From an uncultured Planctomycetaceae bacterium (GTDB lineage Bacteria > Planctomycetota > Planctomycetia > Isosphaerales > Isosphaeraceae), in the NCBI GenBank assembly GCA_963833985.1, contig CAWIAD010000001.1, positions 3,072,001 through 3,136,000 of the forward strand: a stretch of DNA of 64,000 nucleotides, given 5' to 3'. Numbering within the stretch: position 1 is the stretch's first letter; the number at the start of each line of letters is the position of its first letter. This document shows, piece after piece, positions 30,001 to 36,000 of this stretch. A program made the position numbers.

Positions 30001-33000
30001 GTTCAACACGGCGGACCTGACCGGGTGGGAAGGCCACTCGTCGCTCTGGTCGGCGCGGGACCGCATGCTCGTGGGTACGTCGCCGGGTCTCGACCACAAC
30101 GAGTTCCTGGCGACCCGCCAGCCCTACGGCAACTTCATCCTCTCGCTGCGCTTCCGCCTGGTGGACGGCCAGGGGAACAGCGGCATCCAGTTCCGCAGCG
30201 TGCGGGTGCCGGGCACCGAGATGTCGGGCTACCAGGCCGACCTCGGCGAGAGCTACTGGGGCTGCCTGTACGATGAATCGCGGCGCAACCGGGTGCTGGT
30301 GAAGGCTTCGAGCGACGCCCTGGCCATGCTCAAGAAAGACGACTGGAACCAGTACGTGCTCTGCGCGGTGGACGACCGGATCACGCTCTTCCTGAACGGC
30401 GCGGCCTCGGTCATTTATCAGGAAGAGGGGCAGAACATTGCGCGCGACGGGCTGATCGCGGTGCAGCTGCACGCGGGCAAGCCGATGGAAGCGCAGTTCA
30501 AGGACGTCCTCATCCGCAAGCTGCCGTGATCAAACACGAGTCCATGAGGTTACTCAAACGTGAATATCCGCGAACGGGAGCTGCGAACATGAGCTCGATC
30601 GGGGGCGTCCCAGCAGGTGCGGTACGCAAAGGAATTTCTGATGGTGGGTTGCGCTGCGCCGACTCGCCTGGCGAGTCGTGGCGTCCGGTTCACGGGCTGT
30701 TGCTTTTGCTCGTGAGGCTGACGCTGCTGGGGGTTGCCGCCTGGCGTCCTGTACCCGTCCACGGCCAGGACTTCACGCCGCGGACGCTCCGGGCCCCGCT
30801 CCAGGAAGAGACCGGCCGGCGGACGCCGCCGGAGATGAACCACGTGCCCTCGGACGTGCGCGACAACGCGGGGCTGTTCTCGCCCACTGCGGTGGCGGCC
30901 GCGCGGGCCGCGCTGGAGAAGCTGGAGCGCACGCTGGGCGTGCCGGTGCTGGTTGAGACGGTGGAATCGCTGGGGGGCGAGAGCGTCGACGAGGCGGCAC
31001 TGCGGCACGCGCGGCGGGCCGGAGCGCAGGGGGTGTTCATCCTCATCGCCCGCAAGGAGTCGAAGATCGAGGTACTGGCGTCGCGGCGCTATAGCGAGGC
31101 GCTGTCGCGGCCGTCGCGACTGGGCGTCCGCTCGGCGTTCGTCGATGCGTTCCGGGAGAAGGATTTCGACGGCGGGCTGCGTGAGGGAATCTCGACGCTG
31201 GAGACCGCGCTCGCCGCGGCCAGGCGGCAGGGCAAGCTGCCGCAGGCGGAGCAGCCGGCCGGCCGTGATGAGTCGCCGGAACAGCCGCGCCGGATCCTTC
31301 CCCGGTCCAGCGCCGGCGCAGGTTCCGCAGCCAGCTTCGAGGGGACCGGCGGGCACGAGACAGAGGCAGGCAACGAGCGGGATCGGGGCAGTTCGTTGAT
31401 CGTCCGCAACCAGGTCCGACTGACGCTGGACGGGGCGCGGACGATGATGGCGGCAGCCGCGCGGCAGGCGGCAGCCATGAACCTGAAGATGAACATCGCC
31501 GTGGTGGACGACGGCGGGCACCTGCTGACCTTTGAGCGCATGGACGGCGCCCGGCCGGCCAGCGGCTATACGGCCATCACCAAGGCGACGACCGCGGCGA
31601 CCTTCCGCCAGCCCAGCGGGCCGATCCCCGCGGGCACGGCGAGCCCCGACCTACTGTTGAACGTGAGCCTTCAGCTCGCAGCCCAGTCGAGCGGGGGCAA
31701 GCTCACCACGCTGCTGGGGGGAGTGCCCGTCGTCGTGGAGGGCCAGGTGATCGGCGCTCTGGGCGTGGGAGGCGGCTCGGGCGAACAGGATGCTCAGGTG
31801 GCTCGCGCCGGGGTCCAGGCGCTGCTCGATGCGTTGCGGACGCAGGAGCCACGCTGAGCGTCATTCGCCCTCTGCCGCTCGGCCGCCACGTACGTAGTCT
31901 ACGGGTTGATCTCCAGGCCGGACCATCGGCCGCGGTCGTCCATGGAGTATTTCCAGCGGTGCTGGGGGTTACCCTGAAGCTCCAGGTGATCGACGTCGCG
32001 GACTTCCAGAACAATCAGACGGAAATGCGGCAGGGGCTCGAGCGGGTCGGGTGCGTGCGTGGGAAATGGGGCCAGGGGCACGCGCGCCTGGCCTGGCTCG
32101 GGCCAGGTGTAGGTAAGCCGCGATTCATCGGACATTTCGCGCGATACCTCGAGCCGGGTCTCGCGCAGAGTGCGCTCGAGCGTCTCTGGGCCAACGGAGA
32201 TGACCGTGCCGCCGAACCGGAACTGCTCGCGGGTGAGGTGGAAGTACCAGCAGGCCTCGGCCCAGGGCGCGTTTTCCAGCTCGGCGGTCTTGGTGCTACG
32301 GCCGTCGGTGGCGAAGGTAAGCTTGTGGGTATCTCCCAGGAAGCCCCGGAAGACGAGCGTGCGCACGGCGGGCCGGCCGGAGTCGCGGACCGTCGCCAGC
32401 TGGACGAACCGCACCTGCGGAGACTGCCGGTTCCTGTGCAAGGCCAGGTCAAGTGAAGGACGCCACAGTTCTTCAGCCATGCACCTATTCTGAGCCAAGA
32501 GGTGCGCCGGGGAAAGACCAATCCCCTCACGGATGCGGGTAGCCTCGGGGGTTCGGTCACTCGAGTGATCCGATCAGCGAGCCGAGGCGGACGAGTGCGC
32601 GGTGGACCTCGTCGATGGTGCGATCGAGGGTGGACGTGCCCGCCGTGAGGCCGACCACGGCGAAGCCATGAAACCAGGCCGGGTCCAGCTCGGCCGCGGA
32701 CTGTACGTGCAGCACGGGCCGGCCCTGACGGCGGCAGAGCTCCGCCAGCTCACGGGTGTTGTTCGAGTTCCGGCCGCCCACGACCACGACCGCATCGACA
32801 CGGCCCAGCAGCCGCTCCAGCGCGCGCTGATGGTCCTTGGTGGGCTGGCAAATGGTGTCGATGAAGCGAACCTCGGCGTGCGGGTTACGCGCGACAATGG
32901 CCGCACGGATCGTCGCGGCCTGGGACTCGGTGACGGTCGTCTGGCAGAGGACGCCCAGCCGGGACGACGGGTACGCGCGGACGTCGTCCTCGGACTCGAG

Positions 33001-36000
33001 CACTTCGGCGTGGTCCAGGCTGCCGACGATCCCGCGGACCTCCACGTGCCCCTTGCGACCGATCACCAGAACGGAATAGCCCTCGGCCTCGAGGACCCGC
33101 GCGGCCTGGTGGCGCGCTCCACGAGCGGGCAGGTCGTGTCAATGAGCGTCTTGCCGGCCGCCTGGAGTGCGTGCCGCCGGCGATCGCTGATCCCGTGCGC
33201 CGTCACCAGCACCCGCGGGCTGGCCGGTACGGGGCGCGTCGGGGTGCCATTTTGCGGCTCGTCCTCCATCGAGAACCCGCGCGCTTCCAGCTCGCCCAGC
33301 ACCACCTCGTTATGCACAAGCTGGCCCAGGATCGTCACGCCCCCGGGGTCTGCAACTTGACCAATCGTGTGCAGGGCGTCGCGCACGCCGAAGCACATTC
33401 CCAGCACATCCGCCCGGATCACGCGCATGGCCTGTCTCCTCCCGGCCGGCTCGCTACTCGCTGGGCCAGCCTGCTTGATTCATCGGGGCCCTTTGGCGGT
33501 CACTTGTATTCGCCAATAACTTTGCACCACAAAGCAAGACGCACCAGAAAAGGGGCGGCCCGCGGAGCAGGGCCGACCAGCGGGCACACGGTTCGGTTCA
33601 GACGGGCGACCAGCCTTCGGTGAGGTTGGCCGAAGCGCCGGTCCTGGCGGCCTTGAGGGCATCCCGGACCACGGTCTCCAGGACGTTGATGTACTCAAGG
33701 AAGCGGCGGCGGCCGTCGTCAGTGAGCCGGCAGAGGGTCTGGGGGCGGTTCTTGTGGAAGCCTTTCCAGATCTCCACGAAGCCAGCCTCACTGAGCACCT
33801 GAAGGTGGCGGCTGAGGTTGCCGTCGGTCAGGTTGCAAAGTTCCTTGAGGTCGGCGAAGACGAGCCCGCGTGGATTGGTCACGAGCGAGGTCATGATGCC
33901 AAGCCTGGCCTTCTCGTGGAAGATCCGCTCCAGGCCCTCGTAAGCGAACCGGCCCAGGGCATCGTCGTGCGTGGTTTCAGGAGGCGTCATGGTCACGCTC
34001 CAGTGTCTGATAAAGCACGGCGGCGGCCAGAAGTTGCCCCAGGCAGAACGGCAGGCCCATGGCCCAGGCGTCCAGCGCGTGCTGGCCCTGCATGAACGCC
34101 AGCGCGACCAGCCCGGTCAGCAGGTAGAAGACGGCCACGCCGAACATGAGGCGCGGGAGCAACCGCCGCGAGGCGAAGATGCCCAGGCTGTAGAGCACCT
34201 GCCAGAGACCTGGCAAGATCCAGACGCTCTCGGGCGCCGAGCGCACCACGACCAGCGTCACCAGGGCACCGGCGATGAGGCAGGGGCAGAACTGCTCGAG
34301 CGCCAGGAAGGTGAGCTCGCGGGTCAGCGGCGAGGCGGCATGCCGGGCGCGAATGCCCATCTCCACCACCGCGGAGGCACCGCTGATGGCCGCGGCCCCG
34401 ATCCACAGGATCAGGTAGGTGTTGATCTCCTGGACCGGGTCCTGCACCACCAGCGACTGAAGCGCCGCGGCCAGCAGCGCGACCAGCCCGGAGAAGGCTG
34501 CCGGCACCGCGCGATAACCCCGGAACAGCTCGGTCCGGGCCATCTGCAACCGGATCTCGGTGATCTGAGTGAGCGCCTCACGAAGTTCCATGCACGAGCC
34601 TCCCAGGAGCCCCCGATCGCCGCACGTTGTGGTGCCAGCCATGTCTTCCGGTAGACCTGCCCCGGACACACGAACGCTTTGCATTGTAAAGCCTCAAGGC
34701 CGCGCTGTCAATGCCTTCCAGTTGCGCGGTCGGGCGGTCCAGGCGTCGCTCGCCCGGGTCGCCGGGCGGCCAGGGAATGGAATGCCGTCGTGCGAACCCG
34801 CCGGATTCGGTGTACACTGGTGGCATTGGCACCAGAGGTTCTTGAGAATCCAGTTGATGCCGCTGTGACCGGTCGGCGTGCCAGCCATTTTCGAACGGTT
34901 TCCCCGAGGGGGACTCAATTCTCCCCGGGGAGCACGAGAACGCCTTCCACGATGGATTATTCACAGTTCTTGATCATCGCCGGGCTGATCCTGGTCAACG
35001 CCTATTTCGTGACCGCCGAGTTCGCTCTGGTGAAGGTGCGGACCAGCCAGATCGACCAGCTCGTGGAGCAGGGAAGCTGGGCGGCACGCATGACCAGCAA
35101 GGCCCTGGACAAGCTGGACGTCTACCTCTCGGCCTCCCAGATCGGCATCACGGTTGCCAGCCTGGCGCTGGGGCGGGCCATCCAGGACTGGGTTGAGCCG
35201 ATGGTCGCCGCGGCCTTCTCCAACATGGCAGGCCTGCCCGGCATTCGCCAGGGCCTGGGCTTTCTGGCGCGGCCTGCCGCAGCCTCTTTGGTGTCGTCGG
35301 GCTCGACTTCGAGCGGCTGGTACCCGGGGTCTCGGTGGGGATCGTCCCGGTCGCAGCGCTCTGCCTGGTAACGTTCCTGCACATGGCGCTGGGCGAGCAG
35401 GCCCCGAAAACGCTGGCCATCCGCGCCCCGAGGATCCTCGCGCTGGTGACGGCGCCTCCGCTGGTTCTGATCGGCCACGTCTTCTGGCCGGTGATCTGGC
35501 TGCTGAACACGGCCAGCAACCTGACGCTGCGGGTGATCGGCCTGGGTCAAGGGAGCCACGAGGAGTTGACCCACACCGAGGAAGAGCTGCGGCATATCGT
35601 GCTCGAAAGCGTGGAAGGCGGGCACCTCTCGCGGAACGAGCGGATGATGATCGAGAACGTGCTCGACCTGGAAGAGAAGACCGCGCGGCGGGTGATGGTC
35701 CCGCGGCCGGACATCGTCTACCTGAGTCTGTCGCGTCCGCTCGAGGAGAACCTCCGGCTGGCGCGCCAGGCGGGGCACACGCGTTTTCCGCTTTGCGAGG
35801 ACGACCTCACCACCGTGATCGGCATGATTCACGTCAAGGACGTCTTCCGCTCCGGCGGGCTCCAGAACGGCCGGGTTGATCTCCGCCACCTGGCGCGCAA
35901 GGTGCCGTTCCTTCCGGTCACGCTGCGGCTCGACCAGCTTCTGCTCGAGTTCCAGAAGAACCGGGTGCACCTGGCGATGCTGCTCGACGAGTACGGCAGC

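Follow-up and report, generated by a model that had tools for sequence, protein, structure and literature searches.

A 64,000-nucleotide stretch of an Isosphaeraceae genome (hereafter, the window) carries a small gene pair and copies of a 17-bp palindrome, RCTTTR-N5-YAAAGY (the box), which probably belong to a membrane-coupled autorepressor controlling lipid-carrier synthesis genes and released on carrier shortage; judging from the sequences, a probability of roughly 55% is given to this model. It is built on what the DNA itself shows: the motif and its position, its loss together with the gene pair, and which genes make up the regulon. An HTH_34 protein very likely binds the box directly, presumably as a dimer. 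Repression would be exerted where the box covers the −10 element or the start, namely at the regulator's own operon, the radical SAM gene, purA-uppS-cdsA, the VanZ-like gene and others, and for the −10-overlapping promoters it is proposed with good confidence. The co-translated membrane protein (an N-terminal helix and six membrane helices, 6TM) would be the sensor, and it is a probable relay to the regulator. When polyprenyl phosphate (undecaprenyl phosphate) is short or trapped, 6TM would tether the repressor at the membrane or otherwise inactivate it, and the release would raise de novo carrier synthesis (Dxs, second IspH, IspA, UppS) and carrier-handling membrane proteins. Such a circuit would operate in the manner of SdpR/SdpI and fulfil the role that SigM has elsewhere. 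The lipid carrier itself, a scarce molecule on which cell-wall construction depends, is put forward only tentatively as the signal. A wider formulation, in which the pair in several phyla reads the polyprenyl-phosphate pool, frees the repressor and raises the whole pathway leading from DXP to undecaprenyl diphosphate, along with carrier-altering enzymes, is somewhat doubtful. Two putative enzymes are meant here, one a B12 radical SAM enzyme and the other a di-metal oxidase fused to IspH.

Organization of the Locus

The genes of the pair lie on the reverse strand. The 204-aa membrane partner (33977..34591), a putative sensor/anti-repressor without a Pfam family, precedes the 130-aa winged-helix regulator (33598..33990), assigned to PF13601 HTH_34 by Pfam and matching PH1061 (PDB 1ub9) with E 6e-9. 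The two genes overlap by 14 nt, the regulator starting before the membrane gene ends, and an overlap is also present in 68 of 104 distant pairs. The operon has a sigma-70-type promoter on the same strand, with the −35 hexamer TTGACA (34706..34711) and the −10 hexamer TACAAT (34683..34688), giving 11 of 12 matches and a 17-nt spacer; TTGAC is part of the consensus across the 30 Isosphaeraceae loci of this promoter. The −10 hexamer lies within operator box 1 (34676..34692), a putative autoregulatory site that matches the motif exactly and has 0–1 mismatch in all 30 family loci. The same register, with the promoter's −10 inside the box, recurs in 29 of the 30. The CNNM/hemolysin gene at 34952 runs divergently from the operon.

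Operator box 2 (33519..33535), also exact, lies upstream of ispH and has 0–1 mismatch in 22 of the 24 family loci with ispH in this place, so that both boxes placed here by an earlier survey, before ispH and before the membrane gene, were recovered. A terminator-like hairpin in the regulator-ispH gap (33556..33575, reverse strand) is weak evidence, with 1 found against 1.0 expected in shuffles. The ispH gene (32557..33428, reverse strand) gives a LYTB match in both halves of a reading frame that is broken at about 33111–33114. The frameshift is probably an assembly error: 22 of 24 family copies of the box-linked ispH are in one frame, and a near relative's low-depth contig has one extra base at 33111. 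The gene is a second paralogue, and no box precedes the ordinary planctomycete copy at C2:2729844. The survey's choice of ispH as a target is thus right as to the exact box and needs correction as to the gene, which is neither unsplit nor the sole ispH. At 21 of 24 loci, no sigma-70 promoter could be assigned to ispH. Downstream lies a pyridoxamine-5′-phosphate-oxidase-like gene (31899..32498, reverse strand; Pfam), whose membership in the regulon is uncertain; it directly follows the regulator in 3 of the 30 family loci, without ispH. No RNA holder is listed for the window.

Statistics of the Box

The box occurs 11 times genome-wide, and the stricter form RCTTTG-N5-CAAAGY nine times; every other half-site spacer from 0 to 15 yields just 0–2 occurrences. 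By our own gene calls, ten copies are intergenic against 0.39 expected from the half-sites, and the reversed-pattern control has two occurrences in the genome, which bears out the reported enrichment of an intergenic palindrome. The list of box targets stands for the confirmed ones and does not cover two of the 11 exact sites, C1:1760745 inside an ORF and C2:2115424 upstream of an unrelated gene, neither of which has an assigned target. A score matrix gave 12 real sites of at least 18 bits, compared with a mean of 3.3 (maximum 15, 20 shuffles) when its columns were shuffled. Given this background, sites below about 18 bits were called solely when conserved. A 2-mismatch search of the window alone was not enriched (5 found, 5.5 expected), so the signal depends on exact matches and conservation. 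In several other genomes, the raw counts do not exceed those of the reversed pattern (for example, 4 vs 9 in G065, 0 vs 6 in G221 and 4 vs 14 in G384), and this counts against the model.

Composition of the Regulon

The gene content of the regulon, as annotated from sequence, is dxs, the second ispH, ispA and uppS, covering undecaprenyl-phosphate supply, together with VanZ and putative lipid-modifying enzymes. Assignments with Pfam and NCBIfam confirmed ispA-dxs, the B12 radical SAM gene (two boxes) and the membrane-protein genes named by the survey as box targets, the last being a VanZ-like gene, an ABC-2-permease-like gene and one unnamed membrane protein. The purA-uppS-cdsA operon, absent from that list, is preceded by a one-mismatch box. 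The description of the regulon as isoprenoid precursor supply suits dxs, ispH and ispA and is too narrow, since uppS and envelope genes also belong to it; their presence points to the polyprenyl-phosphate carrier rather than to isoprenoid precursors in general. No box was found at ispH and ispA of the hopanoid cluster (C1:3.39–3.40 Mb). The radical SAM enzyme scores under every NCBIfam cut-off, HpnJ and HpnR included, and has one distant solved relative; hence, a role in hopanoid methylation was not assigned.

Among 98 long homologues of the regulated IspH clade, the fusion partner is a ferritin-like di-metal domain in 93, the B12 radical SAM enzyme in two and an Lcp/rubber-oxygenase domain in one. 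Such fusions would suit an alternative in which a specialised polyprenyl lipid (methylated, oxidised or saturated) is made or remodelled, instead of ordinary undecaprenyl phosphate being topped up; the extra IspH and UppS paralogues would feed this branch, and 6TM would sense its product or an envelope cue. Stand-alone ferritin-like genes, which have two boxes in 3/3 genomes with 6TM and none in one genome without a detected 6TM, point the same way, as do the resemblance of the domain model to R2lox and aldehyde-deformylating oxygenase (TM about 0.6, E 1e-3) and an FAD oxidoreductase (lycopene-cyclase/FAD_binding_3 matches, labelled here “geranylgeranyl-reductase-like”) inside three operons. 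The regulated UppS, too, is mostly a separate clade, and a second uppS is present in 6 of 9 genomes checked. The modified-lipid explanation is nevertheless unlikely. The putative modifying enzymes are each patchy in distribution (the radical SAM gene in 17 of 81 Isosphaeraceae genomes; the ferritin-like gene not found in the window's genome), and in Isosphaeraceae the box sits at the sole uppS found and the sole full-length dxs.

Occurrence in Other Phyla

The system extends beyond Isosphaeraceae, the group named by the survey. Both box and gene pair are present in Planctomycetota, Acidobacteriota, Gemmatimonadota, Bacteroidota and a scatter of further phyla, usually upstream of uppS, ispH or creD. 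By plain mismatch count, the box precedes 6TM at 29 of 30 loci in the phylum of genome G386 (background 2/90) and at 33 of 40 Planctomycetota loci (background 1/118). Of 80 loci from other phyla, 78 have 6TM ahead of the regulator and 50 have uppS after it; of 40 distant Planctomycetota loci, 12 include ispH in the operon, 10 uppS and seven the radical SAM gene. The gene uppS has come under the box in more than one way. Some copies form a paralogue clade of their own (23 rows, SH-aLRT 99), others are of housekeeping type and adjoin the pair, and a further route is the box before purA-uppS. One pair operon encodes a kinase of the DgkA family, which is known for undecaprenol-kinase activity. At 30 Bacteroidota-type loci, the next genes are mostly creD, DUF1361, DUF2809 or a gene for an unnamed 190-aa protein. 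These neighbours are not carrier-synthesis genes, a point against the model.

Regulator and Membrane Partner

The regulator scores 79 bits against the curated cut-off of 27 for PF13601 HTH_34, and PH1061 was the sole solved relative found by sequence. The label “ArsR-like” therefore applies to its fold and not to its family, the score for NCBIfam HTH_metalloreg (ArsR/SmtB) being 28.3 bits against a cut-off of 55. Like ArsR/SmtB metalloregulators, the protein has a winged-helix fold, weak HTH_5/HTH_20 scores and putative autoregulation at a palindrome; unlike them, it lacks conserved metal ligands. Compared with the Cys/His/Asp metal-site motifs of that family, 31 regulator orthologues have no Cys in invariant or 90% columns, and their one Cys is restricted to a subgroup.

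The AlphaFold2 model of 6TM (pLDDT 95.8) has a helix at residues 2–20 and six more helices, so that the window locus has the arrangement of a helix+6TM/wHTH switch, an N-terminal helix and six membrane helices encoded beside a wHTH gene. Foldseek with this model gave no match at E 0.001, a PDB sequence search with the 6TM alignment gave a single match (E 0.06), and the ESM Atlas returned unnamed clusters only. For 70 homologues, 25 of the 31 weak families were listed, none of them an SdpI model. Longer fused forms (413–2000 aa) were not found, which is weak evidence. A fold identity from VIA-align was rejected, as the best hit, a designed helical barrel with Z 9.7, is within noise for helical bundles. 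In 32 diverse rows, F182 is the sole invariant residue and no invariant charged residue marks a phosphate site, which also counts against the model.

Comparison with Known Systems

A predicted “switch” of this kind, given for the FCB group and Pseudomonadota and defined through DUF2809, has been reported before, and coupling to isoprenoid-lipid or exopolysaccharide precursors was proposed for it (PMC12419801). It is very probably the same pair as here, given the two-gene architecture and the neighbours CreD, DUF2809, DUF1361 and Coq4, which adjoin Bacteroidota-type homologues of the present pair. Operons of this kind were found at homologues L390, L392 and L398 in the phylum of G386, the Coq4 match being weak, whereas the window locus has none of the four, and a search of its genome found no CreD. 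The passages of that text and its supplement differ in giving no DNA motif and no in-trans targets; in supplement 5, “IspH”, “LYTB” and “DUF4153” have 0 occurrences and “Prenyltransf” appears at seven loci as “loosely associated” (PMC12419801). The system is unmentioned in the passages seen of PMC9239112 and PMC12561984, and neither motif nor regulon was found in published literature, subscription journals and RegPrecise being outside the scope.

In Bacillus subtilis, SigM-YhdLK is a proposed keeper of undecaprenyl-phosphate homeostasis and likewise a membrane-held transcription factor; SigM, however, is of the ECF sigma-factor type, acts mainly by boosting recycling and occurs in Bacillus only, according to the sections consulted (PMC11081497). 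The present system would employ an HTH_34 putative repressor and act on de novo synthesis, uppS included. The same source describes UppS overproduction as poorly tolerated in B. subtilis and recycling as favoured (PMC11081497), which counts against the model; it also states that analogous carrier-homeostasis pathways outside Bacillus await discovery. The present system is a concrete candidate for such monitoring, and its 17-bp operator, two small proteins and predicted target list make it directly testable by reporter assay. The box also groups CreD, DUF4153, DUF1361, VanZ-like proteins, the B12 radical SAM clade, the IspH-fused ferritin-like domain and the separate UppS clade into one regulon, and orphan families so united likely have a common function.

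In B. subtilis, the winged-helix autorepressor SdpR is encoded together with SdpI, a membrane protein of six helices that sequesters it on signal, as far as described in the part of the source used (PMC2910880). This parallel in architecture, along with many uncharacterised membrane targets and the VanZ, CreD, DUF4153 and ABC-permease-like genes, would suit an envelope-damage or antimicrobial response in which 6TM binds an outside agent and the carrier genes are lineage-specific additions. Such a response is improbable, as it leaves the repeated in-trans recruitment of ispH, ispA-dxs and uppS unexplained, and the predicted outer loops of 6TM are short. Further differences from SdpR/SdpI are the lack of any Pfam match for the window 6TM at E 0.1, the opposite order of the two genes and a regulon that spans unlinked metabolic operons.

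Position of the Box and Its Co-Loss with the Gene Pair

The radical SAM gene has a box in 16/16 loci with upstream DNA and two boxes in 12, and TTGAC lies 5–6 nt upstream of the first box (spacing read from the sequences). At ispA-dxs, where the promoter core is T(G/A)GAC-N18-ACAAT, in 33 of 35 cases 15–18 nt separate the end of the box from the −35 downstream of it. This differs from where a simple repressor sits and counts against the autorepressor model. The fixed spacing is near the class I activator position and could reflect a dual factor, a repressor at −10-overlapping boxes and an activator of ispA-dxs from a site centred near −60. There is little probability in this explanation, though: the second half of the box and a conserved T-run after it resemble the UP element consensus, so that binding could damp the essential operon, and opposite control of ispA-dxs and ispH/uppS would be incoherent within one pathway. 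The inverted repeat in the ispA promoter, for which a reading as DnaA-like boxes was weighed, coincides with the promoter core, and that reading was dropped.

Co-loss was scored with a matrix trained solely on loci outside Isosphaeraceae. Of 35 genomes with the pair, 31 have a purA-uppS box of at least 14 bits, against 0 of 9 without it; for the ispA-dxs box the counts are 35 of 47 and 0 of 9, respectively. The ispA promoter core is retained in all nine pair-less genomes; these come from only five genera and hence represent few independent losses, and the ispA box is also missing in 12 of the 47 regulator-bearing genomes. Fifteen of 80 genomes lack 6TM, and all 15 also lack the regulator. The overlap of the box with the regulator's own −10 and the boxless state of two unlinked operons in genomes without the pair uphold, independently of each other, the survey's link between regulator and box, and the HTH_34 protein encoded next to it very probably uses the palindrome as its operator. 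It is very improbable that the box serves another, unlinked factor with the gene pair as merely one target, as it flanks the pair in all phyla sampled and decays in pair-less genomes.

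Locus Organization and Operator Counts

On the minus strand of the window, the gene of a 204-aa membrane protein (34591-33977) is followed by that of a 130-aa winged-helix protein (33990-33598) and by ispH (33428-32557). Exact copies of the palindromic box RCTTTR-N5-YAAAGY, the putative operator, lie at 34676-34692 and 33519-33535. The 10.2-Mb genome contains 11 exact copies, any other spacer from 0 to 15 gives 0-2, and the reversed pattern, taken as a control, gives two. The intergenic enrichment reported in the survey was reproduced with our own gene calls (10 intergenic copies versus 0.39 expected), and the regulon is real and strongly conserved. 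Close homologues of the membrane protein that have names belong to Isosphaeraceae.

Two unusual fusions are found at 29042-31857 (plus strand), one combining a prenyltransferase-type alpha-alpha toroid with a 3-keto-disaccharide hydrolase domain and the other a TPM domain with an HbpS-like domain. A shortened reverse-transcriptase-like ORF at 23664-24395 (minus strand) has, judged from its translation only, the appearance of a group II intron remnant.

Association of the Box with the Gene Pair

The box lies upstream of the membrane gene in all of the 30 best Isosphaeraceae loci (exact in 28); the regulator gene follows in 30/30 and ispH in 24/30. The −10 element falls inside the box, with a TTGAC −35 element, in 29/30 loci, and the pair's promoter in the window is TTGACA-17-TACAAT. 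Of 80 Isosphaeraceae genomes, 65 yielded the membrane gene, and the regulator is likewise absent from all 15 others; two incomplete genomes of the family have the membrane gene alone.

Co-loss was scored at a threshold of 14 bits, using a matrix trained on non-Isosphaeraceae loci. Of 35 pair-bearing genomes, 31 have a purA-uppS box of at least 14 bits, versus none of nine near-complete genomes without the pair, where the best score is 10.5 bits. The ispA box reaches the same threshold in 35/47 genomes with the pair versus 0/9 without; this comparison drew on 59 of 70 genomes in which ispA was matched and set aside three incomplete ones with no detected pair, two of them carrying the box. All nine pair-less genomes keep the ispA promoter core, and therefore the loss of the box is selective. 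As the nine genomes represent only five genera, in two of which a regulator-bearing sister is also devoid of the ispA box, they correspond to a handful of independent losses. The regulator-box link proposed in the survey is upheld by the autoregulatory position and by box loss in pair-less genomes, and the assignment of the winged-helix protein as the probable regulator is well supported.

Targets of the Regulon

As claimed earlier, boxes were found upstream of the pair, ispH, ispA-dxs and the B12 radical SAM/DUF4070 gene (two boxes). Boxes also precede a VanZ-like gene, an ABC-2-permease-like gene, the gene of an unnamed membrane protein (C1:422938) and a small membrane ORF broken by a stop (C2:1751043), and a box with one mismatch precedes purA-uppS-cdsA-phoH. 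Two of the exact sites were matched to no target. In an exact-box scan of seven other Isosphaeraceae genomes, the recurring targets were ispA-dxs, the radical SAM gene, VanZ, the ABC-2-like gene and the C1:422938 family; a few exact sites sit upstream of unrelated genes, and one of the seven genomes (G051) has no exact box. A multi-pass membrane family without a name (L001:2938-3766, L210, L226, L228), with a conserved terminal GAQMGWVLRPF motif and frequently two tandem paralogues, is boxed in several Planctomycetota.

Sign of Control

The arrangement at the pair's own promoter, the radical SAM gene and purA-uppS fits that of a repressor. Where upstream DNA was available, the radical SAM gene has a box in 16/16 loci and a second one in 12, the first lying 5-6 nt after TTGAC; at purA-uppS, the −10 element begins 9 nt ahead of the box in 20/32 loci. 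No promoter could be placed at ispH in 21 of 24 Isosphaeraceae loci. The ispH box can be as near as 33-60 nt to the start codon, a distance too short for an activator site upstream of the promoter. In 33/35 ispA-dxs loci, 15-18 nt separate the end of the box from the −35 element downstream, a position that would fit either activation from about −60 or occlusion of a UP-like A/T tract.

The ispA-dxs promoter core TGTGGACA-N13-TGTCAACA (L005:5579-5607, G000:C2:5245579) forms an imperfect inverted repeat with no second copy in the genome. The core pattern containing it was found in 58/59 Isosphaeraceae loci, and the repeat resembles the DnaA boxes of high-GC bacteria.

ispH Paralogues and Probable Assembly Errors

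The ispH that carries the box is a second paralogue, and the ordinary copy has none. The regulated copy was found in 46 of 81 Isosphaeraceae genomes and in one of nine regulator-less ones. In the window it is broken near 33111-33114. As 22/24 family copies have a single reading frame, a low-depth contig from a near relative shows one extra base at the break, and this genome also has splits in uppS, the C1:422938 gene and the adjacent CNNM/CBS/CorC hemolysin-family gene (34952-36378, plus strand, frameshifted), the break most likely stems from an assembly error. The splits in these four genes point to frequent single-base assembly errors.

Outside the window, a hopanoid-type gene cluster lies in the stretch G000:C1:3380000-3445000 (L230), together with a third ispH and a second ispA. 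By eye, the encoded proteins are alphaproteobacterial in look, possibly reflecting contamination, a chimeric join or a large transfer.

The Membrane Partner

The membrane protein matched no Pfam family. Its predicted model (pLDDT 95.8) features an N-terminal helix followed by six more helices, and a fold search with this model gave no known fold above noise. Basic residues are concentrated in the N-terminal helix and the loop following the second membrane helix, which suggests that both face the cytoplasm. Conserved positions are mainly glycines, a proline, aromatic residues and I-R-x-x-M-x-R of the N-terminal helix. The membrane gene overlaps the regulator gene in 68/104 pairs. From this anatomy, and from its likeness to that of SdpI/SdpR of Bacillus subtilis as described in PMC2910880, we infer a sensing mechanism in which the membrane protein would act as sensor and anti-repressor of the winged-helix regulator.

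Judging by the available text of PMC12419801, the pair is very probably the two-gene switch already predicted there, and hence the pair itself is not new. No operator, trans regulon or ispH/ispA/dxs link was found in that text or elsewhere in the literature searched. The closest model in function is SigM-YhdLK, whose authors state (PMC11081497) that analogous pathways elsewhere await discovery.

Distribution across Phyla

The system, described in the survey as one of Isosphaeraceae, holds there but is not limited to that family, since box and pair also occur in other Planctomycetota and other phyla. The membrane protein is present in 63/301 Planctomycetota genomes. Forty of these loci were picked by hand with a view to spread and to the length of the contig; 33 of them have a box with 0-1 mismatches upstream of the membrane gene (background 1/118), and the operons include ispH (12), uppS (10), the radical SAM gene (7) and an FAD oxidoreductase (2).

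Searching species genomes with the regulator alignment gave at least 599 matches, of which 80 loci were kept, biased towards the first query row. Most of these come from Acidobacteriota and Gemmatimonadota; Gammaproteobacteria, Rhodothermales, Spirochaetia and Chloroflexi contribute some. The regulator lies behind the membrane gene in 78/80 and uppS comes after it in 50/80, and DUF4153 and CreD are frequent next genes. A box was scored upstream of the operon in 64/80 loci (background 0/357 windows), with a matrix trained on those same 80 loci. G386 is a Rubricoccaceae MAG, and in its phylum (the cluster of one such protein is labelled Bacteroidota in Atlas) 69/201 genomes have the membrane protein. 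Among the 30 best loci, the same box precedes the membrane gene in 29 versus a background of 2/90; the next genes encode CreD, DUF2809, DUF1361, a DgkA-family kinase (once) or a 190-aa protein without a name. Exact-box counts were not above the reversed-pattern control in several of these genomes, so the evidence outside the family is positional rather than a genome-wide excess. The reversed control, YGAAAY-N5-RTTTCR, is frequent (6-14 copies) in G065, G021, G052, G221, G384 and G385 and may be the site of another factor.

Lipid Carrier Synthesis as a Proposed Common Theme

The MEP pathway begins with Dxs and ends with IspH, and two prenyl-chain synthases, IspA and UppS, then lead on to undecaprenyl diphosphate. 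The regulator-linked UppS retains the catalytic motifs. In a quick tree, 23/28 regulator-linked UppS form a separate clade and 5/28 branch with housekeeping copies, and a second uppS is present in 6/9 genomes checked; uppS thus came under the control of the box on more than one occasion.

According to PMC12419801, VanZ and DUF2809 are predicted to act on polyprenyl-lipid head groups. Among 98 long homologues of the regulated IspH clade (P0277-P0374; L445, L447, L448), a ferritin-like di-metal domain is fused C-terminally in 93, the radical SAM enzyme in two and an Lcp-type oxygenase in one. Named sources of the ferritin-like fusions are Gemmataceae, Pirellulaceae and Planctomycetaceae. Stand-alone ferritin-like genes have two boxes in 3/3 genomes with the pair and none in one genome where the pair was not found. 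The predicted structure of the domain resembles R2lox and aldehyde-deformylating oxygenase. Such putative enzymes hint at a possible modification of the carrier as well.

In the separate UppS clade (L336-L339, L345-L348 and others), DYS replaces NYGG and SDFLLWE replaces SNFLLWQ; internal helices are shorter in several rows, and the product chain length may be different.
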